Source: a virus (lineage: Duplodnaviria > Caudoviricetes). From it: a stretch of DNA of 64,000 nucleotides. The notes under the pieces are model-generated. The model had not been told where the DNA came from, did not search any database, and saw nothing but the letters and a program-made list of their open reading frames with translations. The stretch lies in IMG/VR virus record IMGVR_UViG_3300032327_000953, positions 1-64,000 of that record. The stretch is one strand, 5' to 3'. This document shows, piece by piece, positions 20,136-47,168 of this stretch; positions within the stretch are counted from its first letter, which is position 1, and each line of letters starts with the position of its first letter. A program made the translations under genes and the position numbers.

Positions 20136-23100
20136 TTAAGTTCTAGACGGTGTTGGGCTAGCTGTTACTGTGCTGGTTGGTGTGGGTGTTGGAAACTGTC
20201 TATTAGGAATAATTAACATATGATTAGCTAAATGACTAATTCCTATATTCTCTAATTGATCAATATCAGTACTAACATTGATGGTTGACCAAGGACCACT
20301 AGCATTTAATGGTAATTCAAAAGGAACAGTTGGTAAGTTAACAGCAGATGGAATATTAATAATAGAAGTTGTCAATGCTGTTCTGCTTGTTATGTTGCCA
20401 GTTTGTCCAAGATTACTTTCTCCCCAAGAATATAATTGTCCGTTTATTGATTTAATAGCAAATGATGTTATACGGCCAGCATAAACTCTCTTCCAATAAT
20501 TACGACTATTATCAGAGTTAACAGAACCAAAGTCTACTTGGGCGATATCTATTTCATTAGGATTATCTGTAATTACCTTTGGTGAGGATATTACTCTGGC
20601 AATTTGTCCGAAGGTATTATCTCCCCATGCCCATAATGAACCATATGAATTATTATTTGTAAACTCTTTCTTAATAGCAAGATTATGATAAGCGCCAGCG
20701 GCAATATCTAGCCAGATATCAGTTTCGATTGAGCGAATTTGAATATCAGAATAGTTATCTTGTAATACGTAAACTTTAATTGGTAGTGGAGCATATGGAA
20801 TAATAGCATCAGCTCTATCTGGTAAATCCTTTTCTCCTATTGATCCAACAGAAGGATAATTCTCTTGTACAACTCTTGCTTTTGCTAATAATGTGCTTGC
20901 TGGCCCTAGACCCAACTGACTAAAATCATTATCTCCCCATACCCACATTTGACCCATAGTATCTAATGCTAGAACATGGAAACGACCCAAACTAACTTTC
21001 TTCCATGAGAAACCTCTGTTATAGCAATAGCCCTTGCCGGGTGGAGGATTAATCATCTTTGGTCTGGTTGTTAAACCGATTCTGACCACTGGTTTATTAT
21101 TCACAATTATTATATCACCAGCATTATTTACATCCTGAATTAATCCCATACCCAATTGACCATACTTATTACCACCCCATCCAAATAGTCTGCCACTAGT
21201 ATCTAAAGCTAATGAGTGAGATTCTCCAGCAAAGATTTTCTTGAATGTTTGATATTCATATGAAGAACCATTACTAAATCTAGTGATAGAGATATACTTC
21301 ATTAATTTAGTATCTAGTGTTGAGATTTGACTATGATCTATTCTGATCTTTGTTACGCCAGTACTAGAAAAATATTCAACATCCAATACCTTAACCTTGT
21401 ACAACAATTCTGGAGATGAATGAACACCATAAATATTAACCAAGCAAGTAGCTTTGTTCGTATTAGTCATGATATTAGAAATATCACCATAAATTGTAAC
21501 AACACTAAATGCTTGTTTGGTTGGTGTTACTGTTGGAGTCTGAGTATTTGTTGGAGTATTTGTTTGGGTGCCTGTTTGACTTGGAGTTATACTTGCTGTT
21601 ACTGATACTGTTGGACTATTTGTTGGAGTACCAGTTCTTGTTGCAGATAGTGAGGCTGTTGTTGATGGGGTCGCTGTTAGGGTAGTTGTACTAGTTGGGG
21701 TTCTTGTGGGGGTTGGGGTTTGTCCAATAGATGCTGTTGGTGATGAAGTTATGCTTAATGTGGGCGTAGAAGTTAATGTGGTTGTTGATGTATTTGTGGG
21801 TGTTAGGGTTTGAGTTGTGGTAGCGGTATTAGTTGGGGTTGAAGTTAAAGTACTGGTTGTTGTTGCTGTCAAACTCAACGTTGGTGTTGGTGTGGGAGTA
21901 GCAAGATAAACAGTATCAGTATCAATGCAGTATCTATATTCTTTATAGGCGTTGATCTTTTTGGGAATTGGATTAGCTAATAGACCCGGATCTGTGTCAA
22001 CTTTGGTCTTGGATGTTATGATAGGAACAACACTAAAGCTAATAGCTTCATAATTTTCCCACTGTAATCTAATTGTTGTTTCACCATTAGCATATGTTGG
22101 AGCTGTCCAAACCTTGGCAATGCTATTAGAGTTAAGAGCACCATTATAATAATCTAATACTACTTCATCATTTAAACTAAATTCATCTCTAACATCATAA
22201 CTAATTTTAACATCATATAAATATAGATCAGAATCAATAGTACTAATAGATTTAATTGGTCTTGGTGGATAATGATTGCCCAATTGAGCATCAGAATTTC
22301 TACCCCAGCTCCATACGTTACCATTTGAATCTAAAGCAAGAGCGTGCATACCACCCAAACTTACCTGCTTAAATACCACTCCATTTAAAGAAGAATCTGA
22401 TAAACGAGTAAACATTGACTTACTCTCAAAATTACCCAGACCAAGCTGACCCCAAGCATTAACTCCAGCACTATGTAATGAACCACTAGAATCAATACCA
22501 ACAGTAAAATTGGATCCTGGAGAAATAGTATCAAAAGTTATGCTATTGGATGTACCATTATCTCTATAATTCAAAATATTCTGATAGTTTGATAATTGTC
22601 CAGTAGTTTGATCAGATAATCTTGGTGGATCAATAAATCTTTCCTTTAATACATAACCCATACCAAGTTGACCATAAGAATTATCTCCCCAGACAACAAC
22701 ATTAGAAACCAATGCTGTTGGTGTTGGTGTTAATGTGGGAGTTCTTGTTACTGTTGGAGTTATGGTATTAGTAACGCTTGGAGTAGGAGTAACTGTCGAA
22801 GTTAAACTTGGAGTTAAAGTTTGTGTGCTAGTTGCTGTTGGAGTAACAGTTTGAGTAGCTGTTAATGTGGTAGTGGTAGTTGATGTGGGCGTAAGTGTTG
22901 GCGTTGTTGACTGAGTTAGTGTGGCTGTGGTAGTCGGGGTTGAAGTAACAGTAGACGTTGGAGTGGCTGTGCCAGTCTGTGTTCTTGTGGGCGTTATGGA
23001 AGATGTGGGTGTTGTTGTTTGTGTTCTTGTTGGCGCGGGAGTTTTTGTTGGTGTTGTTGTTGATGTGGCCGTTAATGTTGGCGTGGAACTATATGTGATA

Positions 23101-23651
23101 GTTGGAGTAACGGTTGGCGTTACGGTTGCTGTTGGAGTAGGTGTGATAACAATTTCTGGGGGAATAATCTTATAAGCATGAAGATCATTAAAAACGCTAC
23201 TATCATCTTTTTTTCCAATTACCCAATAATTATCTGGGCCATAACAACTATCAACTTCTGGTAAACTTCCAAACTCTATTGTGGCTCTGTATCCTGGACC
23301 AACAAGAGTAGGAGAGTATTCTCCAGTATTATTTGTTGTTAAATATGCTACAACCTTATTGTAAGCATCTACCATTACCAATTCTAAACTAGCATATGTT
23401 AATTGAGAATAATAAGGATTTTCAAATTTTGCAGTTTCAATTATGTCTTCATATGAGTATGTGAAATTAGTAAATTCATCTTCCACCACACCAACTTGAA
23501 CTGGAACGCTAACTCCATCACCATTACCATATCCAATAGATAAAGTTATTATGCTATGATCATAGATGTTTCTTAAGGTAAATTCGCCACCAACCCTATA
23601 TATTGTTAATGGATATTTAATTAAATCATCATATTTTACTGCGATTCTCAT
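20136..23651 (-). CDS. RCC1/BLIP-II propeller adhesin with two long Thr/Pro tracts (1,171 aa)
   Basis: Seven (W/A)G.N..(G/S)Q(L/I/T)G-type repeats; T/P tracts at 22716-23148 and 21519-21902. Confidence 0.8.
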   Translation of the reverse strand: MRIAVKYDDLIKYPLTIYRVGGEFTLRNIYDHSIITLSIGYGNGDGVSVPVQVGVVEDEFTNFTYSYEDIIETAKFENPYYSQLTYASLELVMVDAYNKVVAYLTTNNTGEYSPTLVGPGYRATIEFGSLPEVDSCYGPDNYWVIGKKDDSSVFNDLHAYKIIPPEIVITPTPTATVTPTVTPTITYSSTPTLTATSTTTPTKTPAPTRTQTTTPTSSITPTRTQTGTATPTSTVTSTPTTTATLTQSTTPTLTPTSTTTTTLTATQTVTPTATSTQTLTPSLTSTVTPTPSVTNTITPTVTRTPTLTPTPTALVSNVVVWGDNSYGQLGMGYVLKERFIDPPRLSDQTTGQLSNYQNILNYRDNGTSNSITFDTISPGSNFTVGIDSSGSLHSAGVNAWGQLGLGNFESKSMFTRLSDSSLNGVVFKQVSLGGMHALALDSNGNVWSWGRNSDAQLGNHYPPRPIKSISTIDSDLYLYDVKISYDVRDEFSLNDEVVLDYYNGALNSNSIAKVWTAPTYANGETTIRLQWENYEAISFSVVPIITSKTKVDTDPGLLANPIPKKINAYKEYRYCIDTDTVYLATPTPTPTLSLTATTTSTLTSTPTNTATTTQTLTPTNTSTTTLTSTPTLSITSSPTASIGQTPTPTRTPTSTTTLTATPSTTASLSATRTGTPTNSPTVSVTASITPSQTGTQTNTPTNTQTPTVTPTKQAFSVVTIYGDISNIMTNTNKATCLVNIYGVHSSPELLYKVKVLDVEYFSSTGVTKIRIDHSQISTLDTKLMKYISITRFSNGSSYEYQTFKKIFAGESHSLALDTSGRLFGWGGNKYGQLGMGLIQDVNNAGDIIIVNNKPVVRIGLTTRPKMINPPPGKGYCYNRGFSWKKVSLGRFHVLALDTMGQMWVWGDNDFSQLGLGPASTLLAKARVVQENYPSVGSIGEKDLPDRADAIIPYAPLPIKVYVLQDNYSDIQIRSIETDIWLDIAAGAYHNLAIKKEFTNNNSYGSLWAWGDNTFGQIARVISSPKVITDNPNEIDIAQVDFGSVNSDNSRNYWKRVYAGRITSFAIKSINGQLYSWGESNLGQTGNITSRTALTTSIINIPSAVNLPTVPFELPLNASGPWSTINVSTDIDQLENIGISHLANHMLIIPNRQFPTPTPTSTVTASPTPSRT
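21519..21902 (-). repeat. Thr/Pro-rich tract (~128 aa)
   Basis: Direct translation. Confidence 0.95.
22716..23148 (-). repeat. Thr/Pro-rich tract (~144 aa)
   Basis: (T-x)n with recurring TPT, read directly from the translation; GTTGG/GGTGT-rich on the + strand. Confidence 0.95.
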
Positions 23652-26600
23652 TAATCATCCTTTAATAGAATTTGTGGATTTAGAGATGGAATATAGTCTT
23701 TAAATTTTGGCCTAATATTACTTTGAGCTACTGTGTAACCAGCAGCCCACTTATCTGCATAAACCGAATATACTACACTAATATAATATGCTAATGGTTG
23801 CGGGTTTGTTGAGTTTCCTAACATGAAAAGATTATTGTTATTATTAGATAGATCATTACTAGCTAAACAGTATAAATAATTTTCATCTGCTTTAATATTA
23901 TATATGTCTGTCATTCCTGTTGGCAAACTTATTGGGCGACTAATATATGGATTGATATGTAACTTATTATTAACATCATAAGCTCCAATAACATTTCTGC
24001 AAGCAGCAACTTTGGAATATGCTACGCTATCATCAATAAGTGTTGGATTAGGAGCTCCAGCAGTATTTCCACTATACATTATTGGAGTTAGTCCATTAAT
24101 ATTACCAGAAGTACCCTTAGAAATTGTTCCACCTTCCCAAGCTCCATGGATTCTATATAAATATCCATCAGTTTTGATACCAGCCGCAGTAAAGGAAATT
24201 CCTCCAATATCACTCCAAGTATCAGTACCAATTTGAGCTAGAGTATTTGTAAAACTAGCTGATGATCCACCATTAACCATATAACTATTACCAAAAGCCC
24301 ATAATGTTTGATCAATTGCTGATATAGCATAAATATATGGCAGGTTAGAAAAATTATCCCATGTTCCTAATATAAACTTAGATACTAGCAGAGAAGAGCC
24401 TATTCTGGTCCAAGCTCCACCATAAGTTGTTCCACCTAGAGTTACATTATTGTTGAGCGAATTTAATGCATAGAAATATAACTTACCAGATACTGATCTT
24501 GCTGCCAATACTTTATTTGAACTAGCAGCGTAATTTGAATAATTTGATTGAATTTCATCAATAACTTCGCCAGACGGATTATCAATTACTATTGGATTAT
24601 ATCCAGCAATTACAACTTTACCATCACTTAATAAATATGCTATATTGGCACTAGAGCATCTTGCTATTTGTTTTACGATAGCCCCTGATGATTTGCTGAA
24701 TGATCCAGCAACTGTTGTGGAACTCTTATTCCAAGCTGGAACTTGCGTCCAAATAGAAGTATAGTTGTTTGAGTTGCTTGGAGCAAAGCCATACCAATTA
24801 CTGTTATTAGAACTAGCCACCCAAACTGTGCTACTCTTTTCAGCAAGAGTTGCTGCATTAGAATTAACAGGATAAGCATTTTCCGAACCAGATAGAACAC
24901 ATCTATACTGATAGTTATCATAATCATTATTTAGATTACTTAATGACAAAGATGATAATATAGAACCATTTATATTAGACCATGAAGTTCCATTATTGGT
25001 AGAAACTTGCCACTGATAAGTTAATGATGATCCTGATGTTATGTTAGCAGCTACTGAGAATGAAGCGGCACCGTTGTTTGACTCTATTGTACTTGGTTGA
25101 GTATTTATCGATATTACTGAACCACTTCTTGTTGCAGCACTAGCTGTTGGACCAGCATAAACATCTAACCAATAAGAGTCTGGTTGTATTCCAATTGCTT
25201 GTGGAACCGAATAGTCCAAAACTCCACCTTTACCCAATTGATTTTGGCCACCATTACCCCAGGAATATAATTCTCCATCTGTAGTAATACCAACCATATG
25301 AAGATTACCAGCACCTATATGCATCCATGAACCACTAACTTTAACAGGCCCATTACTATCAACTTGACTATTTATTCCCAACTGTCCTTTAACATTAGAT
25401 CCCCAAGAATACAACTCGTTACTACTATTTAAAGCAGCGGTAAAGTTTTGTCCACAAACCACCTTGGTCCAATTACTTCCACTAACAGCAGTAGGAATAT
25501 TCTTAGCTAAATTATCCCCGATTCCCAACTGACCATTACCATTAGCTCCCCATGTATATAGTATTCCGTCTTGTGTTATGGCCGCTGAGTGATTGGCTCC
25601 GCAAGCTATACTAGCTATGTTACCACTAACAGTAATAAAATTACTTGAATTATTATTAGTACTATTACCTAACTGACCATCAGTATTTTTACCACAAGCT
25701 ACTAAAATATTATTTGAACGTAATGCTAAACTATGATTCTCTCCAACAGCAATATCAATATATTCATTAGCGTCAGAAGGAATTAATGTTGGTGTGGTTA
25801 TGGTTGACGTTGTAGTTTGTCCACATTGACCAAATGCATTAGCTCCCCAAGAATATAGTTTTTTAGCAGTGTTTACTGTGGCGATCATCAAATTGTGATT
25901 ATATTTAGTATTAACTTTCACAACATTAGTTGCTCCATTACCAGCACTTTGACTAAATGTGTTGATTCCATAAGTTTCAAGAATTCCTGAGCTATTAACA
26001 AACAGACCATGATTTTGTCCTAAGCTAACTTCTCTATAGATTGTGGAACGATTATTTGTTAAACTTGGAATCGTTGGAGATCCACTATAATTAAGTTGAT
26101 TATTACCATTTGATCCCCATACAAATAAAGCCCCATAATCATCATCTATTGTTAAAACTGCCCGATTACTTGTTACTGGAGTTGAACCAATATTTGAAGA
26201 AACTATAACTCTATAGTGGTAATTATTTAATGCTGATGTTAAACTAGTTAATGAATATGAGCTTGAGGTTGCTCCTGTAATATTACTATATGTGCTTCCA
26301 GCATCAATACTCTTTTGCCACTGATAAGACAAAGTATATATTGTAGCACCAGTTATAGTAGCAACAACACTAAATGAAGCAGCAGCATTAACAGAGGATG
26401 TGCTAGATGGTTGAGTAGTAATAGTAATTTCTGGGGCATTAACAGTTAAAATACCAGCACTACTAGTTACTGGAGATGCATTAGCATTACCACCAACAAC
26501 AACTAAATATCTATATCCATTAGAGGCTGTAGTAAGATTAGTAAGATTCAGAGTAGATGATGTTGCTCCATTAATGTTACTATAAGATGATCCTCCATTA

Positions 26601-28090
26601 GTACTTACTTTCCACTGGTAATTTAATGTTGCATTTGATGGAGAAATATTTGCACTAACATTAAAAGATGCTGTTGTACCAGATGTTGTCACATTTACTG
26701 GGGGACTAGTAATCTGTATTGTTGCTGTTTGAACTGTTAGAACTGCTATGTCACTTGTAACCGGATCAGGAGTATTGATTCCAGATCCTTGTGGCGGTAC
26801 TCCTCCAACGATCACTCTAAACTGTTTGCCAGTATCTCCATTTTGTGGATTATTTATGGTATAAGTTCTTGATGTTGCTGCTGCTATATTATCCCAACTT
26901 GAGCCACCATCAGTACTATTTTGCCACTGATATGTCAACGTTATGGTATTAGGAACAGCAACAGCTGTTACACTAATAGTTTGATTCACTCCAAATAATG
27001 CAAAAATATCAATTAGTGGCTGTGATGTGATACTTAACCCAACCGGTAAATTAGTTGCTGTTGGAGTTGGTGTAGTTGTGAGTGTTGTTGTGGTTGTTGG
27101 AGTAGCGGTCAAAGTATGAGTTGGAGAAGCACTTGGAGGTGGTGGTGTTATGCTTGGTGTTGGAGTTCTTGTTGCTGTTGTGGTTGGAGTAGCTGTGGGA
27201 GTTAGTCCAATTGTTACAGATGGTGTTGGCGTGTTTGTTGGAGTTGCAGTTACTGGACAAGCTTGAATAACTGTGGTGGTATCAAGCCAAAATCTGGCTC
27301 CTTTATGATAAGGAATACCAGGAGAAGCATATCTATTACCATATAGTGGATAAGAACCATCTTCTGTTGTTTCTGGTCCTTGTCTTCCTTGTGGTTTTCC
27401 ATTATGAATCCAATTAATGTATCTTGCTAAATCGCTCCATCCAACATAACTGATAGTTCTTGATACTTGAGCGTCATCATTATCATAGCATCCAAATTGA
27501 TCAACATCACAGCCGTTGATAGTGTAAACATAGAAAAAACCATCGTATGTTCTTTTGATACCGCATTTAATATCAGATTCCATTTCTGGTTTCCACAATT
27601 TATTAATATCATCATATGTGGCAACGCTATTTAAAAATTCTACCCAGTCTCCAACAGTGATTGTGGATTTAGATGAAGCTGATTTTTTATCTTGACTTAT
27701 TTTATAATTGGCCAAATCCAAATATTTATCCAAAACATATGGATGTCTTGTTGGAGTTGGTGTTACAGTAGGAGTACATTGAATAGGAGAGCATCCCACA
27801 TTTTTAACACAAATAATTTGTCTACGCACAGTATCATAATATGGATCAAATAATTCAAAACTAATAAGATAATGATGATTAGGATTATCACTCAAATACA
27901 TCGTTAAATTAAGAGTATCTGTAGGGCTATCTGCTAAAAATTCGCCAGCATTAGGATGAAATATTCCCTTACCCGTATTCATTAATCCTATGGTATAATT
28001 ATACTTTGTCCCAGGGACAAGATCTTGAAGATCGATTATGGCAGATACTTCGAATGGGCAGTCACATTGATTGACGATAATTTCTTGCAT
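23651..28090 (-). CDS. Multidomain adhesin: anchor module, half FGE domain, T/P linker, four Ig-like domains, RCC1 propeller, divergent second propeller (1,479 aa)
   Basis: Four IT.QP...LTYQWQ.S.(D/N)GG.S..NI..AT...YRV copies; seven RCC1 repeats at about 25135-26135. TAATG overlap with the next gene. Confidence 0.8.
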   Translation of the reverse strand: MQEIIVNQCDCPFEVSAIIDLQDLVPGTKYNYTIGLMNTGKGIFHPNAGEFLADSPTDTLNLTMYLSDNPNHHYLISFELFDPYYDTVRRQIICVKNVGCSPIQCTPTVTPTPTRHPYVLDKYLDLANYKISQDKKSASSKSTITVGDWVEFLNSVATYDDINKLWKPEMESDIKCGIKRTYDGFFYVYTINGCDVDQFGCYDNDDAQVSRTISYVGWSDLARYINWIHNGKPQGRQGPETTEDGSYPLYGNRYASPGIPYHKGARFWLDTTTVIQACPVTATPTNTPTPSVTIGLTPTATPTTTATRTPTPSITPPPPSASPTHTLTATPTTTTTLTTTPTPTATNLPVGLSITSQPLIDIFALFGVNQTISVTAVAVPNTITLTYQWQNSTDGGSSWDNIAAATSRTYTINNPQNGDTGKQFRVIVGGVPPQGSGINTPDPVTSDIAVLTVQTATIQITSPPVNVTTSGTTASFNVSANISPSNATLNYQWKVSTNGGSSYSNINGATSSTLNLTNLTTASNGYRYLVVVGGNANASPVTSSAGILTVNAPEITITTQPSSTSSVNAAASFSVVATITGATIYTLSYQWQKSIDAGSTYSNITGATSSSYSLTSLTSALNNYHYRVIVSSNIGSTPVTSNRAVLTIDDDYGALFVWGSNGNNQLNYSGSPTIPSLTNNRSTIYREVSLGQNHGLFVNSSGILETYGINTFSQSAGNGATNVVKVNTKYNHNLMIATVNTAKKLYSWGANAFGQCGQTTTSTITTPTLIPSDANEYIDIAVGENHSLALRSNNILVACGKNTDGQLGNSTNNNSSNFITVSGNIASIACGANHSAAITQDGILYTWGANGNGQLGIGDNLAKNIPTAVSGSNWTKVVCGQNFTAALNSSNELYSWGSNVKGQLGINSQVDSNGPVKVSGSWMHIGAGNLHMVGITTDGELYSWGNGGQNQLGKGGVLDYSVPQAIGIQPDSYWLDVYAGPTASAATRSGSVISINTQPSTIESNNGAASFSVAANITSGSSLTYQWQVSTNNGTSWSNINGSILSSLSLSNLNNDYDNYQYRCVLSGSENAYPVNSNAATLAEKSSTVWVASSNNSNWYGFAPSNSNNYTSIWTQVPAWNKSSTTVAGSFSKSSGAIVKQIARCSSANIAYLLSDGKVVIAGYNPIVIDNPSGEVIDEIQSNYSNYAASSNKVLAARSVSGKLYFYALNSLNNNVTLGGTTYGGAWTRIGSSLLVSKFILGTWDNFSNLPYIYAISAIDQTLWAFGNSYMVNGGSSASFTNTLAQIGTDTWSDIGGISFTAAGIKTDGYLYRIHGAWEGGTISKGTSGNINGLTPIMYSGNTAGAPNPTLIDDSVAYSKVAACRNVIGAYDVNNKLHINPYISRPISLPTGMTDIYNIKADENYLYCLASNDLSNNNNNLFMLGNSTNPQPLAYYISVVYSVYADKWAAGYTVAQSNIRPKFKDYIPSLNPQILLKDD
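24845..27045 (-). repeat. Four Ig-like domain repeats (a fifth at about 29175-29455)
   Basis: Conserved YQW(Q/K), NI..ATS and Y(R/L)V motifs; TGCCA(C/T)TGATA recurs on the + strand near 25007, 26316, 26922 and 29340. Confidence 0.85.
27055..27255 (-). repeat. Thr/Pro-rich tract (~67 aa)
   Basis: Direct translation. Confidence 0.95.
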
Positions 28091-28123
28091 TATGTAAAAT
28101 TCCTTAAATAACTATACCCCAAA

Positions 28124-30694
28124 TCATGGAGGTGGACTGCCACAATCTGGTATATAAACACATTCGTATATGGGTATTCTGTATAATCCGCATCTTGGAT
28201 CAATATATTCATTATATCCGATAATAATACTATCATTACATGGTGGACAGCTTGGTGGAATAATAACCGGAGGAGCACAAGCAGTACCAGATGCTGTTGG
28301 TGGTGGAGTATTGCTAGGTGTTTGAGATATACTTAATGATATTGTTGGAGTTGCTGTTAATGTTGGAGTGCTGGTTGTTGTTGGAGTATTTGTTGGGGTT
28401 TGGGTCGGTGTTGGTGTTTGGGTTCGTGTTTGAGTATTTGTTGGGGTATTAGTTGGGGTCTGACTCAACATGGGAGTATTGGTCGGATTATTTGTTGGAG
28501 TAGCTGTTGGAGCTGGTGTTTTAGTTCTTGTTGGAGTTTGCGTTGATAATGGAGTATGGGGTGGAGTAGCTCGTGGAGTACTTGTTGAAGTTGTTGTTGG
28601 AGTACTAGTTTGTGTTCTTGTTGGAGTTTGACTTATAGCAGCTTTAATAGGAACTATAAAACAGCCTTGCTCATCTTTTGTTGCTGAAGGCAATATCCTA
28701 GCTGGAGTAGCAGTAGGGGATGGGGTTGGTGTTTGAGATTCTGCTGGTGCTGCTGCACCAACGCTGGTATCAAGAATTGTGAATGTTGCTGTTCTAATAA
28801 CTTCATTAGAGTAACTACTATCATCATAAAATACTACTATAAAATTCTCAGAACCCTCTGTTAAAGAGTCTTGTTTTGGATTTAAAGTTAGCTGGCCCGT
28901 AAATGCTTGTGGTGTTTGTGATGATCCAACAGGAGACATACTAATTGTGCCGCCAGGAATAGCATTTGTAAAGTCATTATCTGATGCTGATGTTCCTGAT
29001 GCTAGTCTTCTCCAATAAAGAGTAAGAGCTTGACTACTAAAAGTTTCAGGAGCTTTACTAGCATTAATATTGATTGTTAAAGTTTGACCTTCATCAATCT
29101 GATTGTTGTATAGTAATGCTGCAGTATTATTAATTAATGAAGTTAGTGAGTATGCTGTTGGTACTGATGGTACACTAAGAGTTGTTACATTGCTTGTTAC
29201 ACTAGATGCTCCATTAGCAGAAAGTATAACCAAATACTGATCACCATTATCAGAAGCATTAGTTAATGCTGTTAATGTTAAAGATGATGAGGTTGCATTT
29301 GGGATATTAGTGAATGAAGATGCTCCAACCTCCTTTTTCTGCCATTGATAAGTTAGAGTTGCTCCTTGAGTAACAGATGCTGTAACACCAAGAGTTGCAG
29401 ATCCATTATTAGCCAATATTGTGGATGGCATATTATTGGATATATTAATAACTGATGGGGCAGCTCCGTCATCGGCATAGAAGTCATATAGTAATATATT
29501 TCCATCTATTATGGATTCTGTATTACTCGTGGTTGATAGGGCTGCATTTGATGGCAAGGTTACCACAGCACATTTGGATGATAATCCTACGCCCAGAGTA
29601 TTTCCAAAAGTACCATATGTTAAATTATTATTGTCAAGAAATACTAATCTAATATAACCAGTGGAAATTGGATTTATTGTTAGTTGGTATATATTATTAG
29701 GTACAGCTGAGGTTACAAGAGTTGACCATGGGCCAGCACCTGCTGTGGCATATTCTGCTCTTATAAAAGAGTAATAAGCACCACCTCCTGTATTAACATA
29801 ATTTCCATTGAGAGGGATTGTATATGTAGAAGTACTACTACTATAAATAGTATTTGTTAAAGATGTAATATTAATAGCATCAGTTGCTATTCCACTTCCA
29901 GGTAAAACAGTAGATATGTAACTAATGAAAGACCCTGTACCAACAATGGTGCTTCTGCTAGATGCGTTAGAAGTTGGAGGTAAAAGAGTTAATGTATTTT
30001 TATTTATAGCATAACCACTAAATACTAACTTTACATATCTTATATTGCCAACACTAGCTGGAATAGTAATAGTTTTATTAACAACCATTCCATTTATAGG
30101 AGTAGTTACTGTTGTATTTTCCAAATCAAAAAAAGCAGTATTGGTAACACCATATTGAACTTTATATACTGCTGATACAACTCCTCCAAAAACTTTATTT
30201 GTAAAAGATGTTTCAACATCACCAATAGCGCCAGAATATGCTGAAGAACATCCAGAGGTATTATCTACTCCAGTTCCTTTTAATATATAAGCTAAAGATC
30301 CCGAACTATCATATATGGAAGATTTACCAGGAACAAATCTATATGCAGTAGAGTTATTAAAACCAGGATCGGCAGCATTGTTTAATCCGGGGATAGAATA
30401 AAATCCTGGATTAACTGATATTGTGCCAACGCCATAATTGATTTGAAATTTACAATTTAACTTAACTGAACTAACGCTTTTTATAGACCCCAAATCCATT
30501 ATGATCCCAGTTTCAACAGAAGCTTTATGTCCAACATCAGTTCCAGAATAAACTGCTGATGAAGATCCATTTTGAACGCTTGATGAGCTGGTTAGTGTTG
30601 AACTATCGTCAGATAATATATCGAATGTTGGAGTTAAATAACCGGGAGTTAATACTGTTCCTGTGGCTAATGAATATGTGGCATTTAATTTCAT
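28124..30694 (-). CDS. Adhesin: discoidin-like domain, Ig-like domain, Calx-beta-like domain, T/P tract, Cys-rich tail (856 aa)
   Basis: IIMDLGSIKSVSSVKL...IRYVKL (discoidin-like); LTYQWQ Ig copy; IDEGQTL...LYW...DF...D.LTEG.E.F...TI.DTS (Calx-beta-like). Confidence 0.7.
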   Translation of the reverse strand: MKLNATYSLATGTVLTPGYLTPTFDILSDDSSTLTSSSSVQNGSSSAVYSGTDVGHKASVETGIIMDLGSIKSVSSVKLNCKFQINYGVGTISVNPGFYSIPGLNNAADPGFNNSTAYRFVPGKSSIYDSSGSLAYILKGTGVDNTSGCSSAYSGAIGDVETSFTNKVFGGVVSAVYKVQYGVTNTAFFDLENTTVTTPINGMVVNKTITIPASVGNIRYVKLVFSGYAINKNTLTLLPPTSNASSRSTIVGTGSFISYISTVLPGSGIATDAINITSLTNTIYSSSTSTYTIPLNGNYVNTGGGAYYSFIRAEYATAGAGPWSTLVTSAVPNNIYQLTINPISTGYIRLVFLDNNNLTYGTFGNTLGVGLSSKCAVVTLPSNAALSTTSNTESIIDGNILLYDFYADDGAAPSVINISNNMPSTILANNGSATLGVTASVTQGATLTYQWQKKEVGASSFTNIPNATSSSLTLTALTNASDNGDQYLVILSANGASSVTSNVTTLSVPSVPTAYSLTSLINNTAALLYNNQIDEGQTLTININASKAPETFSSQALTLYWRRLASGTSASDNDFTNAIPGGTISMSPVGSSQTPQAFTGQLTLNPKQDSLTEGSENFIVVFYDDSSYSNEVIRTATFTILDTSVGAAAPAESQTPTPSPTATPARILPSATKDEQGCFIVPIKAAISQTPTRTQTSTPTTTSTSTPRATPPHTPLSTQTPTRTKTPAPTATPTNNPTNTPMLSQTPTNTPTNTQTRTQTPTPTQTPTNTPTTTSTPTLTATPTISLSISQTPSNTPPPTASGTACAPPVIIPPSCPPCNDSIIIGYNEYIDPRCGLYRIPIYECVYIPDCGSPPP
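28300..28635 (-). repeat. Thr/Pro-rich tract (~112 aa)
   Basis: Direct translation. Confidence 0.95.
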
Positions 30695-30697
30695 AAT

Positions 30698-31876: not shown

Positions 31877-31934
31877 TTAAAGTCTCTTTTGGAGAAGGAT
31901 GTCTTTGTCTAATGTATATTACACCTTCTATTTT
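31877..31934 (-). promoter_or_regulatory. Longest intergenic gap in the tail cluster; candidate internal promoter or hairpin
   Basis: 58 bp; the minus strand reads AGAAGGTGTAATATACATTAGACAAAGACATCCTTCT. It contains an outer inverted repeat (AGAAGG-TGT ... ACA-T-CCTTCT), an inner TGTA-ATA-TACA palindrome and a GGTGTAATATA motif. Confidence 0.35.
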
Positions 31935-37900: not shown

Positions 37901-38621
37901 TATAATTTTCAAAATAACTTGTTTTTAATTCTCTAAATGATTTTATATCTTGATTTTGATTTCCACTCCAATTATGACTTCTTGGTTGAATCTTAACCGA
38001 AGGATGATAACAAACAAAATTTCCGGGAGACTTGGCTAACCATTGTGATTGAGTAAGTTCTTCCGAAGTCCAACCTCCCTGACAGAAGTCTTGAAAAGCT
38101 GCCACGGTCCATTCGACCATTGGACTCTCTTTATATGATTTTGACTTAACAGGTAAATCATATTCAGATAAGTCATCCCAACTTTTATAAGGATATAGAT
38201 AATACATCTTAGTAAAATCATAGCCACTCTTTAGTATAGCATCGGTATTTTTAAAATCTGATGGCAGATAAACCACAGGCATTCTGCGCAAAAAAGTCAT
38301 TTTTAAACTTACGATATCTCCAGCTTTAGCCCCAAGACTTAATGCAATAGTATTTACATCAGACTGTGCTCCAAATTCATAAGTTTTACGATTATAAATA
38401 TCTACATAATTTCTAATACTCGGCATTAATGCTTCTAATATCCATTGGTCGTGCTGTTCAGTTAATTGAAATCCACCATAAATACTAGCTTGATCACCTC
38501 CTTGTTGATATTGCTCAACTGTGAAGCTTTTTTCTGTATAATCATAATACTCTGTATTAGCAATACTGCTATTACCGCTAAAATTAAAATAATTTCGTGC
38601 TGGTTTTAATACATATGGCAT
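31935..38621 (-). CDS. Giant adhesin: duplicated unknown domain, T/P tract, FGE-sulfatase (C-type lectin fold) domain with a lectin-like insert, C-terminal RCC1 propeller (2,228 aa)
   Basis: YSIGKYEITNTEYAEFLN...WYSAARYCNWL...WIPS.DE..KAGYY...GLNDIVGNIREF...GFRIA (FGE fold); about six RCC1 repeats at the C-terminus. Confidence 0.8.
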   Translation of the reverse strand: MPYVLKPARNYFNFSGNSSIANTEYYDYTEKSFTVEQYQQGGDQASIYGGFQLTEQHDQWILEALMPSIRNYVDIYNRKTYEFGAQSDVNTIALSLGAKAGDIVSLKMTFLRRMPVVYLPSDFKNTDAILKSGYDFTKMYYLYPYKSWDDLSEYDLPVKSKSYKESPMVEWTVAAFQDFCQGGWTSEELTQSQWLAKSPGNFVCYHPSVKIQPRSHNWSGNQNQDIKSFRELKTSYFENYTGSRHISSVYTTPQYYGDSSCRIINATLPYSRKTITMGMYVADTKIGYPKYKTVKMPDNSILNILTGFDQSDSKMYSVPYSESVLVSMQITNSTSSFPGNGSQLVATLTATPTYTPTPQSTTTATPTSTQTPTQTRTPTTTTTLTASVTSTTTRTLTPTPSITPSKTVNAPTPTPTPTCSPVTKNLLVQVRDANNPPYQLIRSDLKNIFPKGIGSVSKPYSIGKYEITNTEYAEFLNAIGQNNINDVYDFRWIPSLSSGMVDNNWTLTKTSSNIAWDEQAYSTTSFTNGALCAARASQTGAPIMFGLNSDPTTNANYGSIDYAWYFKFDGTSEIWENGITIGNYGTYTTSTNLVITYDGSNVKYWKDGIVQRTVARSIGSPLFFDSSFYFPSNSITNVKFRPFGSFNENDSYLSPNAPGIIQGGSPGAYTYSVRSGYENKPANWITWYSAARYCNWLHKNKPVDATGVSVNTGSYDLTTPNPTRSSNAKYWIPSIDEHIKAGYYNPTTGGYYKFGIQSDTKPISGTGGSENNGAVYDVAGAGPQNVGSYPNSISYYGLNDIVGNIREFTDTFYNGFPVCVNGTFQHPNYVSQLMIPASVFMDIEGINVLTKEEGKLYNNISTDGNYYGRGIGFRIASFEGLTEAEKISIGAIAPTPTPQMAQCAVDPNNYVNVTDPRYHNKVCANRFVVKDKPINNLYGGFLLNDYDDYDVLNAMGVYFATEKGQWSSGKMMEFRADSDLNSIALYMGAKPGDKVELQMNNVWRGYEIRVRGDGCVDIMPYGSIDPIGGNNFFRTYSINRTYNGPGSAPGPIVKTEMVDTKSSYIGISYYPIMENGSSYKLPISTYGYNTYDLDPKKQWGVETRNYIDNTLFLYTNSFYHRKYDNNNKEIIAIPREYIKPRSPFSDDPGFSIDRNKIGWEELYKDLLRYTYKYTYGPNKTYNRTFLGYDSNGSTYVKPFTQILERIFNEKGAGSAYLESIQNNITNLLQDSKSKLSYSEKQNLLEGYYAERDALGYNNRTPPVGRLSMLVKLVITPPPPPPPSASMTPSPSMFNNATFDSNLIFVKVGSANYSSGLRDDAHLKEYIQNPANILMLISTKNDDGVDGFVPNTRYVIRNIVDGRPVVYRDSSEYTIEKWNNNVTTIKFNQPTSSLGNVTIKFNIGNSLSDNSYIANVLKLKTVANFSKEFWSGNSTVNYVGNELYKNSTYMKYRGELLNYKFKAYYKTSGMTWDNKVPIGANPNFTTLLELDYFSASTTTQVLVKSNNLNSDILFPGEGSSRNPNYNPTPLIFQMDIITRPIEIKVTGANLFSAPNTVGDSLKLLGSDPEKDNFQLNMSKGFNKQIAIVVNCFSTSEGKTLSECPIELKIDSVSNCLADAVSIDTKSFDNFNYDSANPNNVRFKLNIKDRFANPSLYSEPSGFIYLSVSTPGSTKYDAKKRLIGICWTIMPTTDSITVGAIDTLYVGDSQISTDLYIESTKDQDRMPTNIIVTPSDSKIMNVYQSNSGQNYSLKISANSTIDTTNPDILNALKNAAVTIETKNSRWYLPTKQTIPLKIYPKNARLSRTPSTKYAYITSGTSHYLAITGQGALHAWGTNAKGVFADSIPATTATYTPTLNTSLRNTVIYIIKHPKNLRWVQVESYGYNVYALDSEGTLWGWGANENGSLGVGRDGQINTPTIIAPEIKWKDIACGVNHAIGVSQDGKVYGWGDGTFLQNGCGSKTGTSINTNSPKEIANIGLLTSTGFGNAIGVSCGPYSSWVIGGNNYLWAFGDLNGLYNVRRTTGDKGYYAPLTNHTPSYSTVAYKQKGSDPVLFDVPNGPAVTNVFHAKKKWNPHIVGTGTRDFGQAITVKNISVSAGHVLAIDTNGKAIGWGNNEYNQCFIYTPADYPYVPAGGPPNAAVNGLKDKVFSGEDGTFIAASPGQSLLIDTNNDLWAGGNNNNYELGIFLNIASNTFVNTNASYFYLLRQIPGKYRSITANSYGGFVETF
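37366..37590 (-). repeat. Thr/Pro-rich tract (~75 aa)
   Basis: Direct translation. Confidence 0.95.
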
Positions 38622-38623
38622 AA

Positions 38624-40543: not shown

Positions 40544-40559
40544 AACCTATATCCTTTAT

Positions 40560-43500
40560 TTATTTACATTCACAATTACAATTATTTTTACTTACTATAA
40601 TGTTGCTTGTAACAGCAGGGAAAAGTGTCGAGCCAATGCCCCATTGTATAACTTGTTCAGCAGTATTATTGACTAATATACGCTGACTTGGTGTTGGTGT
40701 TACACTAGCAGTATTGCTAGGGGTAGTAGTTGGAGAACAAGTTATTGTGCTTGTTGTTGTTGGGGTTGATGTAACTGTTGGGGTATTTGTTGGAGTTGCT
40801 GTGAGGGTCCCAGTTGTTGTTGGTGTTGGTGTTGGGGTCAACATACCAGTAGCTGTTGTTGTGGTTGTTGTTGTTGGTGTTGGCGTAAGCGTTGTGGTTG
40901 ATGTATTTGTTGGTGTTAGAGTTATTGTACTAGTAGGTGTTGGAGTGCGGGTATTAGTTGGTGTTTGGGTTGGTGGAATAATGCTTAGATAAATATCTAT
41001 AATGTAAGAAGCACTATCACCATCAATTGCTAAACTATAATTAGTCTGAGTTAATGATGTATTATTAGTAATTGATAGTAAGCCACTTCCCACCTTACTG
41101 CTATCAATAGTGTCTGTTGCTACAGTATTATCTGATACGTTCCAAATCGAGCCCAATTTTAAGGACAATGAATTAGAAGCAGATGGTGCTGCGGTATAAG
41201 AAACTAAAACCATATTTTCTAATTGTAATCCAGAATTAACGCTGAATCTTAAATAGTCTTGAGATCCACCAACTATTGATCCTGACAATCTATTTCTACC
41301 AGTGGTTAGATTAATAAATGTTGGATTAGTTGCAATATTTGATAAGACACCGTCAACATTCTCTGCATAAGCTGTGGCCGCTTTGGTAGCAGATGGTGTT
41401 GGGCTGCATGTTTGGGTTGGAGTGGCTGTTCTAGTTAGTGTTGATGTTGGAGTTACTGTTATTGTTGATGTGGGGGATAATGATGGAGTTGTTGTTGGGG
41501 TTGGAGTTAATGTTGTTGTTGTTGTTGGTGTTTGTGTATTAGTTGCTGTGGCTGTGGGTGTTCCAGTTTTGCTAGCAGTAATACTTGGAGTACATGTATT
41601 AGTTGTTGTTGGAGTTTTTGTGCTAGTAATAGTATTTGTTGGAGTTACTGTTGGTGTTCCAGTTGCGGTTAAAGTTGCTGTTGATGTTAGTGTTGGTGTG
41701 GGTGAAGCAGTAATTGATGGGGTTATTGATAGTGTTGGAGTAGCTGTTGGTGTTGGTAGTGGAGTGGCTATAACAGACTCTGTTCCTGGAAAGGTTGGAG
41801 GAGTAAAATTTCTATTATATCTTGCAACACCATTTGTTACTCTTATATCATTAAGATAAACTTCATCTATAACATTATACGGGTCTCCACCAATACATAT
41901 AGAATTATCCATTTCCAAAATTGAAGAATCATTAACTGAAGTTATTAAAACGCCGTTCAGAAATGATCTTAAAACACCATTTTCTCTGCTGAAAGCCACA
42001 TGATTCCACATAGGAGGAATATATGGATTACCTAAATATGTTATAGTATCAGTTCTACCATTATAATATTTAAATCCACCACCAATAGAAAAACGAAAAG
42101 CTGGTCGATATGCATCTGTGGTTAAAAAAGCTGTACCATAAGGATTATTATAGTAATTAGGTATATAAATCCTAGCCTCGATTGTAAAGTCTTTATTTCC
42201 AAATCTAAATAAGTTTTTATCAGTAGGAGTAATTCCAAGGGATGATCCATAATTAAAATGAAAACCATTGGAGGTAATCTCTACAGCCTTACTACCATAA
42301 GCTACAGAAGCCCCAATTCTTTGATGGCGGTATTGGCTATAATCTTTGAAATTAACGGTCTGAATAGCATAGCCACCAGCGTTACCAGAATAGGTTGTAT
42401 ATTGTCCTTCTCCTGATGAATACATTAATAAGGAAACATTATTAAAAAATGGATCGTTTGATAAATTAACTACTGTTGGCGTTGGAGTATTGGTTGGTGT
42501 TATTGATGATGTTGGAGTATTTGTTGGAGTCTTTGTTGGCGTTACTGATGTTGTTGGAGTGTTAGTTGGAGTAACCGTAGATGTTTGAGTACAGCTTAAA
42601 CTGCATGTTGGAGTCACGGAACTAGTAGGAGTACTTGTTTTTGTTGCAGTGACTGATGGGGTGTTGGTTGGAGTATTAGTGGCTGTACAGGTTGGTGTTG
42701 GAGTTATTTCCACTACAGGAATTTTTACGCTATATGCTGAAAGAGTGGTTGGTCTATCTTTAGCAAAGCGTGGCTCGCGCATCTGCATATCCACATACCA
42801 CATAAGTTCTCGTTTAGTATTATCAATACCAAGTGAAGTTATTGGAAAACCATCTTTATCAAAATTAATAGATTCATTTAAATTGGGAACAATAATGTCA
42901 TTACTCATACCTACTGGAAACATTGTTAAATTTACATCATCTAACACTCCAGCACCAAGATATCTAGCTATAGTACTTAATTGAGCATCAGACATAGCAC
43001 CAATTGCACTTTCTACAAAAGAACTTGCAGTAAATGGATTTGTTCCGTATATTGGATAATAGCCAATATTACTGACTGTCATTATTCTAGTTTGAACGCT
43101 AACATTATCTTTACTTACAGCATAAGTCAATTTATTAGTTGAAAAAAAGCTTTTATCAAGATAAGTTGGTAGCATGGTTATATTTGGGGCAGTGTTGCTC
43201 AACACTATTAGTTCTTTTTGAACCATTTTATTTTTAATAGTAGAATATTCTTTATATCTAGAAACATAATGAACATACGTATTATTAAGTAAAGATTTTA
43301 GAGTTACAGATTTTACTTCTCCATTATTGGTTCTATATTTTATATATTGACCTGTTGGATCTGTGACTGTCGGGGATAATGTTAACCCACTAACCTCAAC
43401 CATAGCTCCTGTTCCAAATCTATTATATCCCTGTTTTGTGAGTAAAGAATCATCAGTACCTCCTAACTGAATTGAATCATCCAGACTATATATTAATGCT

Positions 43501-44963: not shown

Positions 44964-44979
44964 AATTCAAATTTCCTAA

Positions 44980-46518
44980 TTATTGAAAACGTGTAGGAGT
45001 TGGAGTGGGAGTTGGTCTAATACCATAATGTATTCTGCTGGTAGTTGGAGTAATGCTTGGAGTTACAGATGGAGGACAGAAGTTTTCGTCACAAACAGCT
45101 AAAGTCAAGTAAGATGTTGTAACAACACCAGTATCAAGATTGATAAGTCTCACTTCAACAATAGTTCTTACTTTATCAGAAATACTTATATATGTTCCAA
45201 ATTTTTGTGAAGAAAATCCAGTGGATAAATATCCTGAGTTCGGCTCAAATATTGTTCCGATATCATTATCTAAATCTTTAGGGAATGGAACACCCTTATC
45301 AAATACTCTGAACTCGTAATAGTAGTTAGCAGTATCATTAAGATTATTTGCTGTAACTCCAATGAATATTTTAGCACAGCTTTCGCAATTATCTATCTTC
45401 AATAATGAACCATCATCAAATGATACCATATGTCTAGGTAGTGTTGGGGTAACTGTGGGCGTTGGAGTTGGCATATTAGAAACTCTATCAATATCAAAAC
45501 AATAATTGTCTTCTGATAGTATAGCTTTAGTTGTTTTATCTACTAGTTTAATATACAAATCATAATGTCCTGGATAACTAATATAAAGAGTTCTATTAAT
45601 ATACCAATCATTAGGAATACTTTTTATAGTAAACTCAGCATCATCAATAATGTATTTTTTAGTTCTGATTAGGTATTCTGAATCTTCTAGCTCAGAAAAT
45701 GTTCCATATCCATCATATTCATATAGTCCATCAATACTATAGTCCTTATTAACTAGCCAGACTATACTACGATCTTCTAAACTAGAACTAAATTGTGAAA
45801 TTAATGTATTGTTATTAACTAATAGTTTTTTATTACTGCCACTCAAGGATAATGATGTTTTCTGTAAAATTATTTTATCTAAAACTCTAACATACTCTGG
45901 ATCAGGACAACTTACCAAGTCCAACATAACATCATATTCATTAAGATCTGATGCTCCAGAAATTTTAATGGTAATGGGGAATGGTTTCTGCTCTTTGAAG
46001 TTGAGATCAACTTGGTATCTCTGAGTTTTATCGTCTCCAGTGAAGCCTAAATTAATAGCATTGCTAAATGTTATATCTTTTTCAATCATTAATGAAGGAG
46101 CATATGTGGTGTCAAAATCATACCAAGTATATGGAAGTTCAGCTCCAGCTTTGTTAAAAATTATAATGCCCTGACCGGGATCTATTCTTTTTAGCTGATT
46201 AAACTTGTCTGTTACTCCAAAAAATCCCAAATAACTAGAAGAATTATTTGGATCAATAGCATATATCTTTTCTATTTTATTAAAAAATTCAGCATAATAT
46301 CTAGTTAATGATCCATTATTAAAAATATATAGTCCATTTTCTTTTGGTTCATTTTGCTTAGTTAATAAAACTAAATCGTTATTTACAAAATATGGATTAG
46401 TTGCATTGTTTATATTGATATTAACATCAAGAGTATAATCTGGAACTAATCTAAAAGGTTCGGTTCCTTTGTATTTTGTAATAGTTACCAAGTCATTAAT
46501 AATGTGTGAATTTATCAT
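44980..46518 (-). CDS. Adaptor-like virion protein (512 aa), paralog of 30698-31876
   Basis: Shared NKI.KIY...LPY.WY block; tail-fibre repeat DLVLLTKQ...ENGLY; C-terminal anchor module flanked by T/P linkers. Confidence 0.7.
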   Translation of the reverse strand: MINSHIINDLVTITKYKGTEPFRLVPDYTLDVNININNATNPYFVNNDLVLLTKQNEPKENGLYIFNNGSLTRYYAEFFNKIEKIYAIDPNNSSSYLGFFGVTDKFNQLKRIDPGQGIIIFNKAGAELPYTWYDFDTTYAPSLMIEKDITFSNAINLGFTGDDKTQRYQVDLNFKEQKPFPITIKISGASDLNEYDVMLDLVSCPDPEYVRVLDKIILQKTSLSLSGSNKKLLVNNNTLISQFSSSLEDRSIVWLVNKDYSIDGLYEYDGYGTFSELEDSEYLIRTKKYIIDDAEFTIKSIPNDWYINRTLYISYPGHYDLYIKLVDKTTKAILSEDNYCFDIDRVSNMPTPTPTVTPTLPRHMVSFDDGSLLKIDNCESCAKIFIGVTANNLNDTANYYYEFRVFDKGVPFPKDLDNDIGTIFEPNSGYLSTGFSSQKFGTYISISDKVRTIVEVRLINLDTGVVTTSYLTLAVCDENFCPPSVTPSITPTTSRIHYGIRPTPTPTPTRFQ

Positions 46519-46523
46519 TATGA

Positions 46524-47168
46524 TTAGATCATTTCTACTTTAATAACGCCTAAAGAACTATTATCATACGTTCCATCCTTGAATTTTGCAGATAATGGGA
46601 TGGGCTTACCATTAATAATATACACGAACTCAAATCCCTTCTCCGCATAATCTGCTACAGCCGATACTCTAGCAACCACTTCAAATGGGCCATCTATTTT
46701 TGATGCAAATAGAACATTGTAGGATTGTGGTAGTCCATTGATTGGTGATAATATGGGATTGAATCGTATTGAGTATCCTGTGGTTGTGCTAATGCTAATT
46801 CCGTATTTGGCTACATTGTAGGTTAGCTCTGTAAAGTTGTCTGGGGCCTCTAGAATAAAACCATAATTATTTGAGGGTAAAGTATTGCCATTTAAACATA
46901 CGGTGATTCCTGGGAAGTATACGATGTCCCCGGTTACTAATTTGGTATATAGATTACCTGTGATAGCATTTAGTACCAGTTCTCCCACTACCAGATCGTC
47001 TGAGCATGGATGATTAGTTGTGGTTTCGTCTCTTTTTAATACTATTCTATTTTGATAAGGTATAAATCCATCAACAATAGCTTTATGGTCTATAATAGCT
47101 GGTGGTTCTGGTTGAGTATTATTTGATTGATCAAATTTTGGGGCGCTAAGATTTTTTGGAAAAGACAT
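46524..47168 (-). CDS. Small fibre adaptor with an Mtd-N / hyaluronidase-N-like motif (214 aa)
   Basis: IVLKR.......L..GEL.LN..TG.LYTK is the common N-terminal trimerisation motif of phage fibres, followed by a short beta-sandwich. Confidence 0.6.
   Translation of the reverse strand: MSFPKNLSAPKFDQSNNTQPEPPAIIDHKAIVDGFIPYQNRIVLKRDETTTNHPCSDDLVVGELVLNAITGNLYTKLVTGDIVYFPGITVCLNGNTLPSNNYGFILEAPDNFTELTYNVAKYGISISTTTGYSIRFNPILSPINGLPQSYNVLFASKIDGPFEVVARVSAVADYAEKGFEFVYIINGKPIPLSAKFKDGTYDNSSLGVIKVEMI

Follow-up and report, generated by a model that had tools for sequence, protein, structure and literature searches.

The described phage structures closest to the locus considered here are of two kinds. 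The carbohydrate-binding module (CBM) adhesion devices of lactococcal and streptococcal siphophages, built from evolved Dit proteins, Tal extensions, and BppA or receptor-binding proteins (RBPs), are encoded directly after the tape measure protein (TMP) gene and comprise several long, flexible, multi-domain proteins with lectin-like or CBM beta-sandwiches, in which a conserved scaffold carries variable heads (PMC6669499; PMC7533335; PMC7291167). The branched multi-RBP complexes of Klebsiella phages of the KP32/K11 and phiK64-1 types and of Ackermannviridae (TSP1-4) are encoded as several RBPs in one array, with conserved attachment ends, exchangeable specificity parts, and small adaptor-like proteins, and their host range is widened by added RBPs (PMC6872550; PMC13352976; bioRxiv 10.1101/2024.03.21.586117). 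The locus analyzed here is a contiguous array of nine genes at positions 20136-47168 of the window, a stretch of 64,000 nucleotides that forms the first 64 kb of the single-contig, 238,135-bp virus record IMGVR_UViG_3300032327_000953 (Duplodnaviria; Caudoviricetes). It resembles both kinds of system in the respects listed, with an accessory gene cassette as the feature comparable to added RBPs. In contrast to the siphophage devices, it has no detectable Dit or Tal homology, belongs to a far larger gene set (16 genes and ∼17,000 amino acids (aa) after TMP), includes RCC1 and FGE domains among its heads, and contains Thr/Pro (T/P) tracts of 80–155 aa that are not described in the three reports cited for those devices. 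In contrast to the branched complexes, it has no match to a T4 gp10-like branching domain (Pfam and PHROG families; folds searched for P0004 and P0008 only) and no beta-helix depolymerase or S74 domain; its heads are non-enzymatic lectins and propellers, and docking is at the stage of a candidate.

The region is probably the variable receptor-binding part of a distal-tail (tail-tip or baseplate) cluster that encodes a large modular adhesion device, and a role in tail-tip adhesion is likely. As such it is an elaborate form of a known phage adhesion device and no new kind of machinery; the initial annotation of this DNA, made from the letters alone, had proposed a new system, but assembly of several RBPs through anchors, branching, and docking peptides is already known (PMC13352976; PMC6872550). 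What is unusual in the array is its scale, its mucin-like linkers, its RCC1/FGE head repertoire, and the absence of a recognizable Dit, Tal, or fibre family.

The genomic position of the array is that of tail-tip and receptor-binding genes. The record has 35% G+C and direct terminal repeats and is rated complete, and its minus strand carries every gene from 3018 to about 107,000. The order of transcription is terminase and portal, a collagen-like fibre gene, TMP, and then sixteen genes ending at 3018, of which the array makes up nine; it follows TMP and one further gene, which encodes a 2465-aa protein. Orthologues of the TMP in related phages carry PhageMin_Tail (PF10145). The nine same-strand open reading frames (ORFs), P0001 to P0009, together encode 8,958 aa (1171, 1479, 856, 392, 2228, 639, 1467, 512, and 214 aa, respectively) and are separated by 0–58 nt, with one start/stop overlap. 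This tight spacing suggests co-transcription, which the initial annotation had stated outright; promoter and terminator scans gave chance-level results.

Pfam was searched at E ≤ 0.01 with whole proteins and at E ≤ 1 with segments. RCC1 repeats exceed the gathering score in P0001, P0002, and P0005 (E 1e-39 to 1e-62); in P0005 they lie above the cut-off for PF00415 and PF13540 and below it for PF25390. Three propeller proteins of the three or four counted initially are therefore firm, and the possible fourth propeller, in the C-part of P0002, corresponds to a weak RCC1_2 match (E 0.044). Both proposed FGE/C-lectin domains are found, one clearly and one weakly: the FGE-sulfatase domain (PF03781) of P0005 scores 51.7–57.6 bits against a cut-off of 23.3 (E 1e-13), and a short second FGE-like domain at residues 100–280 of P0002, which has no Pfam match, is recognized by BLASTP similarity to the first (E 4e-6) that includes the W..A..Y.NW motif region. 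The LamG domain is present in P0007 (LamG_3, E 8e-7), as are the five Ig-like domains, four of them in P0002 and one in P0003 (PHROG 613/25852/4069; Pfam Ig_3); their YQWQ strand is conserved and appears as DNA repeat family D4. The Calx-beta and PPC-like domains were not recovered, neither having a Pfam match at E ≤ 1 or a match in PDB sequence searches with the window proteins, and the discoidin-like domain reduces to weak precomputed F5_F8_type_C matches in the 856-aa orthologues of relatives. The statement that depolymerase and S74 motifs are absent holds, in that Pfam detects no depolymerase, pectate-lyase, tailspike, or Peptidase_S74 family and no catalytic domain in the nine proteins. 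Cys-rich termini are evident in the sequences of several array proteins and are kept in relatives, and long T/P linkers occur in six of the nine proteins. PDB sequence searches with P0002 residues 100–275, P0003, and P0007 residues 1190–1330 returned nothing meaningful.

Homologues of the 512-, 392-, and 686-aa proteins were looked up by exact protein match, which gave the related loci as long contigs from freshwater metagenomes. Five relatives are distinguished by identity to the present phage: A (∼87% backbone identity; L004, L008), B (∼70%; L006, L009, L011), C (∼70%; L010, L012, L013), D (∼56%; L007), and E (∼48–73% identity; L024, L025). Scaffold L010 of relative C has two 100-N gaps (14593-14692 and 18052-18151) in its 1479-type gene, and the gap-free L013 was used instead. 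The gene order TMP-2465-214-512-...-392-856-1479-1171-686-1405-1102-134-2230 is kept in five relatives. The 2465-, 214-, 512-, 392-, 1171-, 686-, 1405-, and 1102-aa proteins are conserved and collinear (45–89%), whereas much stronger divergence and mosaicism mark the 1467-, 639-, and 2228-aa proteins and, within two others, residues 1–400 of the 856-aa protein and the 400 C-terminal residues of the 1479-aa protein. Thus P0001 is 67–82% identical to its counterparts in B, C, and E over its whole length, linkers included; P0009 orthologues are 45–85% identical and syntenic in five relatives; and P0008 has 14 homologues. In contrast, the N-part of P0003 is 33–37% identical to all relatives and its C-part 45–73%, and only 2 representatives of P0006 were found among 1.84 billion proteins. 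A search of viral contigs for related loci with P0009 and P0006 found nothing.

The incongruence is sharpest in P0002, whose residues 1–270 are closer to A (91% identity) than to B (74%), whereas for residues 1086–1479 the identity is 40% to the close relative A and 69% to the more distant B, a pattern that in this analysis is explained only by exchange. The break between P0002 and A lies inside a T/P tract, at about residue 320. Likewise, P0007 is 41–45% identical to A through residue 1053 and 84–87% identical for residues 1054–1425, and the switch falls on the first residue of a T/P tract. The FGE module of P0005 (about residues 424–895) is missing in A and has APTPTP on both flanks, whereas in B only a ∼170-residue insert within the FGE domain (∼488–655) is missing. 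Other events lie away from T/P tracts: the 856-aa orthologues in A and B carry one additional domain of ∼95 aa, the 1479-aa orthologue in B has 300 aa inserted into its RCC1 region, and the identity of P0002 falls near residue 950. Every counted rearrangement event is at a domain border. P0005 itself has the appearance of two fibre units that were fused or duplicated in tandem, given that residues 937–1004 repeat the N-terminal domain at 47–113 (window 35610-38483; 40% identity, E 2e-6) and that the match also holds crosswise between orthologues.

The largest difference among relatives is the presence or absence of a hypervariable three-gene cassette, P0007-P0006-P0005 (1467-639-2228 aa), which lies between the paralogues P0008 and P0004 and with 4,334 aa accounts for nearly half of the array. 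Its proteins have the lowest identities of the cluster (27–73%). The cassette is present in relative D. In relative C, a widespread lineage, only a 73-aa ORF separates the 512-type gene from the 392-type gene. The ORF begins like the 1467-aa family (MPSQ..G), and its last 43 residues match the C-terminus of the 2228-aa family (alignment score 105); because its two ends resemble two families, it is the scar of an in-frame deletion of ∼13 kb. The identical ORF, flanked by the same genes, was found on 21 contigs that differ in sample, source, and assembler, and it is therefore no assembly artefact. In relative E the 518- and 389-aa genes are adjacent, with a 52-nt spacer and no scar. P0008 is kept in both lineages that lack the cassette. 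Judged from these gene contents, the cassette is an accessory unit between two tandem paralogues and is dispensable for the lineage.

The T/P tracts measure 20–155 aa and amount to ∼850 aa in the array, or 882 aa in the post-TMP genes together. Outside the cluster, the genome has one short tract, in a 343-aa protein of the structural operon, and four in a 1094-aa LamG protein at 198–201 kb. The initial annotation attributed diversification of the array to recombination at near-identical linker DNA rather than to a diversity-generating retroelement (DGR). The first part of this proposal is wrong as worded: the tracts are 60–72% identical to one another in DNA, and no two tracts share an exact match longer than 18 nt, compared with 19.5±2.1 nt when these peptides are back-translated at random with unchanged codon usage, so that exact matches are no longer than expected by chance and microhomology alone is available. 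Orthologous linkers are well kept, those of P0001 being 82–85% identical to relative B. The associated expectation of module shuffling at linkers is borne out in part, since several breakpoints in relatives lie in or at T/P tracts and about half lie elsewhere, including the junction of the cassette deletion. In Streptococcus thermophilus phages, the antireceptors are described as having collagen-like repeats that separate variable regions (Duplessis and Moineau 2001, as cited in PMC5601072). As far as that citation goes, they resemble the array in having low-complexity linkers between host-specificity domains that bound variable modules, but the array linkers are Thr/Pro rather than Gly-X-Y, the exact identity of their DNA does not exceed chance, and only some breakpoints fall inside them. 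The proposal that a DGR is not involved agrees with the present results. FGE/C-lectin domains are classic DGR targets, and a DGR was considered for them; it was rejected, as the complete genome contains no reverse transcriptase (RVT_1/PF00078) and no template repeat or other second copy of either FGE-coding region. Diversification by domain-border exchange together with cassette gain and loss, as deduced from the relatives, matches the view of multi-RBP and CBM devices in other phages (PMC6669499; PMC7533335; PMC7291167; PMC6872550; PMC13352976).

Cellulosomes are assembled from cohesin-dockerin scaffoldins with P/T linkers, and a cellulosome-like, plug-and-play organization was the central idea of the initial annotation: small terminal modules would dock varied heads on an adaptor or scaffold, giving a branched, re-sortable apparatus, with ∼100-aa beta-sandwiches, Cys-rich knobs, and conserved terminal peptides as the docking candidates. 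Terminal beta-sandwich modules do stand beside T/P linkers in P0002, P0004, and P0008. P0004 and P0008 share one 57-aa segment (40% identity, E 1e-8) whose match recurs between orthologues, and they are therefore partial paralogues, in line with the two paralogous adaptors annotated earlier; each directly precedes a protein with a conserved, Cys-containing C-end after its linker, and the C-terminal peptides of both are invariant. However, the ∼100-aa module said to be shared by three genes did not hold up. Profile hidden Markov models (HMMs) built from orthologues of the candidate modules find no other copy in a 17-protein database (E > 0.1), and profile-profile comparison with hhalign in local mode (global mode gave meaningless end-to-end overlaps) links the C-end of P0004 to the N-end of P0002 with P=0.005 over 95 columns, every pair involving P0008 being non-significant.

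The predicted structures are of modest quality. The AF2 model of P0008 (mean pLDDT 67) consists of small beta-sandwiches in a row, and that of P0004 (mean pLDDT 55) is folded only at residues 50–135 and 268–370. Fold searches with both return generic Ig/FnIII/E-set sandwiches (RbmA, integrins, GH2 Ig-like, HAP2 domain III); the best match has Z 10.1 (VIA; P0004; 2.4 Å over 100 residues), and no whole-model TM-score exceeds 0.24. A cohesin dyad appears at rank 13 (TMq 0.18) and has no special weight. An ESM Atlas feature search with P0008 and P0004 gave no usable match. The likeness to the cellulosome is thus one of P/T-rich linkers between beta-sandwich or binding modules and of many heads per gene cluster, and it does not extend beyond linkers and modularity: Pfam gives no match to a cohesin or dockerin family, no scaffold with repeated receptor modules is seen, enzymes are absent, and P0008 persists in two lineages without the cassette whose proteins it might dock. 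A cellulosome-like organization is accordingly unlikely. A more specific arrangement is quite unlikely, in which heads plug onto the 512- and 392-aa proteins and the 2465-aa fibre through terminal sandwich or Cys-knot modules and peptides while the stalks are O-glycosylated by phage glycosyltransferases, forming a re-sortable lectin brush at the tail tip; if true, such a glycosylated brush would be a docking logic not yet described for phages.

P0004 also contains a Gly-rich domain, and modules with 44–61% identity to it are appended, in other phages, to virion proteins of the gp15, gp8, and neck types; this shared domain is the best, if indirect, sign that P0004 may be a virion protein. Its ∼55-aa repeat has the pattern GGGGSGAT...ITN.GTGYS.APT.TF, of which unrelated metagenome phages carry copies, and it looks like a promiscuous virion-surface module without a Pfam family.

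The proposed adhesion device would be organized around a conserved scaffold comprising the 2465-aa protein, the 214-, 512-, and 392-aa all-beta proteins, the 1171-aa RCC1 protein, and the 686-, 1405-, and 1102-aa proteins. Large peripheral proteins would be attached to it by their conserved ends, P0002 by its N-end and P0003 and P0007 by their C-ends, and variable heads (FGE/C-lectin, LamG, Ig-like, RCC1, and unassigned beta domains) would be held on T/P stalks of 80–155 residues. The polyproline-II helix rises ∼0.3 nm per residue, and a 138-residue tract, if polyproline-II-like, would span ∼40 nm. Many weak contacts with host glycans may then provide a reversible first adsorption with a large capture radius, and specificity might shift when related phages recombine at domain boundaries, T/P tracts included, and when the cassette is gained or lost. 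On this account, the region is an example of how a host-attachment organ is assembled and diversified in an abundant, uncultured lineage of freshwater jumbo phages. A whole 13-kb fibre cassette is present in some natural populations and missing from others. The region offers a natural testing ground for the influence of domain linkers and of cassette gain or loss on host range, and the heads are concrete targets in the search for the host and receptor.

Several points weigh against this assignment. The location of the nine proteins in the virion is a prediction, and the anchoring ends are deduced from conservation alone. Pfam and PHROG recognize no Dit, Tal, baseplate, or tail-fibre family in the neighbouring genes. 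The enrichment of rearrangements at T/P tracts, estimated from the alignments, is modest, with about 4 of 10 events as against 17% of alignment columns within 10 residues of a tract, and is suggestive but not significant. Finally, the PHROG families that the Ig domains match are those of "head" or Hoc-like decoration proteins, and some products could on this basis decorate the capsid or tail tube.

This last point leads to the alternative that the Ig, RCC1, and lectin proteins are "hairs" on the capsid, tail tube, or tip that shield the virion or make it adhere to particles, mucus-like polymers, or surfaces other than the host, without deciding host range. The genome of coliphage phAPEC6 has eleven genes for RCC1-like proteins whose role is unknown (PMC7247149), and in lactococcal phages CBMs are found on several parts of the virion (PMC6669499). 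The RCC1-like proteins of jumbo phages phAPEC6 and GAP32 (PMC7247149; PHROGs 7220, 4219, 16766) resemble those of the array in being large proteins with propeller repeats, but in the array these repeats are embedded in post-TMP modular proteins together with Ig and lectin domains. The dispensability of the cassette in nature and the further LamG-plus-T/P protein encoded far from the tail genes also fit decoration. However, the array genes follow TMP and are not among the head genes, and the hypervariable mosaic is limited to distal heads, as is typical of host-driven selection. A purely decorative function is unlikely for the array as a whole, and for the Ig and RCC1 proteins decoration of other virion parts is a serious alternative.

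It is highly improbable that the array encodes non-virion products, that is, late-expressed adhesins or effectors that are secreted or released by lysis and act on the host envelope or on neighbouring cells. Most array proteins do lack a recognized structural family, and multi-domain proteins with T/P linkers are common among the glycan-binding proteins that bacteria secrete. Nevertheless, the genes lie inside a 100-kb uninterrupted structural operon, between TMP and its end; no catalytic domain is found; and the P0004 module is otherwise fused to virion proteins. The coordinates of the array genes, their domains, and the principal structural genes are collected in the table.

Table. Features of the array and its operon in order of transcription. 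Coordinates refer to the window unless marked as genome coordinates.
Feature	Coordinates	Strand	Remarks
Large terminase (TerL)	genome 101237-103276	-	upstream of array
Portal	genome 98989-101187	-	upstream of array
Collagen-like fibre gene	genome 86571-89816	-	
TMP gene, 5292 aa	genome 54587-70465	-	window holds 3' part, 54587..64000
2465-aa protein	47176..54573	-	directly after TMP; 61-85% identical, collinear in all relatives
P0009, 214 aa	46524..47168	-	conserved small protein; first after 2465-aa gene
P0008, 512 aa	44980..46518	-	conserved all-beta "adaptor"
P0008 residues 79-135	46114-46284	-	paralogous to P0004
P0008 beta-sandwich 362-482	45073-45435	-	C-terminal; then short T/P tail
Cassette P0007-P0006-P0005	31935..44963	-	hypervariable
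P0007, 1467 aa	40560..44963	-	variable N-region 1-748; C-end with CNCECK
P0007 T/P tracts	42465-42719; 41391-41804; 40689-40991	-	
P0007 LamG 834-1053	41805-42464	-	between T/P tracts
P0007 small beta domain 1192-1324		-	between second and third T/P tract
P0006, 639 aa	38624..40543	-	lineage-restricted; without linker or known domain (no above-threshold Pfam match)
P0005, 2228 aa	31935..38621	-	N-domain, T/P, FGE, N-domain repeat, long middle, RCC1
P0005 T/P tract	37353-37592	-	
P0005 FGE/C-lectin module 424-895	35937-37352	-	
P0005 RCC1 propeller 1781-2228	31938-33281	-	
P0004, 392 aa	30698..31876	-	conserved "adaptor"; ends in conserved C-terminal peptide
P0004 Gly-rich repeat domain 53-118	31523-31720	-	
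P0004 segment 176-232	31181-31351	-	paralogous to P0008
P0004 Ig-like beta-sandwich 262-372	30761-31093	-	
P0003, 856 aa	28124..30694	-	
P0003 variable N-part 1-400	29495-30694	-	
P0003 Ig-like 401-515		-	PHROG 613; then second beta region
P0003 T/P tract	28328-28633	-	
P0003 Cys-rich C-end 790-856	28127-28327	-	conserved; Cys pattern kept in relatives
P0002, 1479 aa	23651..28090	-	
P0002 N-module 1-105	27776-28090	-	
P0002 FGE-like domain 100-270	27281-27793	-	
P0002 T/P tract	27032-27280	-	
P0002 three Ig	26141-27031	-	
P0002 RCC1 propeller	25136-26140	-	
P0002 fourth Ig	24836-25135	-	
P0002 C-domain 1086-1479	23654-24835	-	variable
P0001, 1171 aa	20136..23651	-	conserved RCC1 protein; N-domain first
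P0001 T/P tract	22701-23165	-	
P0001 RCC1 blades	22272-22700 and 20208-21251	-	
P0001 insert with T/P	21510-21914	-	
P0001 T/P tail	20139-20207	-	
Genes of 686, 1405, 1102, 134, 2230, 136 aa	3018..20110	-	remaining operon genes; conserved, nearly linker-free, no known domains

The 2465-, 214-, 512-, 686-, 1405-, 1102-, and 2230-aa proteins have no match in Pfam or PHROG; PDB sequence searches returned nothing meaningful for the 2230-aa protein and low-complexity noise for the 1405-aa protein. The 2465-aa protein has no Dit or Tal signature, and its residues ∼630–1013 show a weak likeness to beta-roll or trimeric-autotransporter-head repeats (E 7e-4 to 0.04); it is likely a tail-tip hub or central fibre. 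Because no sheath family was found in the genome, a very long non-contractile tail is the simplest reading, a diverged sheath being possible. Searches of a phage collection by megablast and tblastn gave no match. The "moraphage" lineage (PMC12619734) was set aside as an identity for this phage: its members have genes for a contractile tail, some also encode DnaK/DnaJ, and no TMP has been detected in them, in contrast to the present genome, which has a TMP and no sheath or HSP70 match.

The final operon gene (3018-3428) encodes a 136-aa protein with 11 Cys and weak DUF6171 and phrog_13558 matches, and just past the end of the tail operon lies a plus-strand HNH/homing-endonuclease-like ORF (445-1245). 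Two glycosyltransferase-like genes match PHROG 2835, at genome 89859-91841 (minus strand) and window 2320-3021 (plus strand), with E values of 7e-34 and 4e-5 in the order listed. One is in the structural operon beside the collagen-like fibre gene and the other at the far end of the tail cluster, and their products could glycosylate T/P or collagen-like tracts. The 1094-aa protein mentioned above (genome 198352-201636, plus strand) combines an N-terminal LamG_3 domain (E 4e-15) with its four T/P tracts and is encoded among non-structural genes, so this combination of domain and linkers is also in use at a distance from the tail genes.

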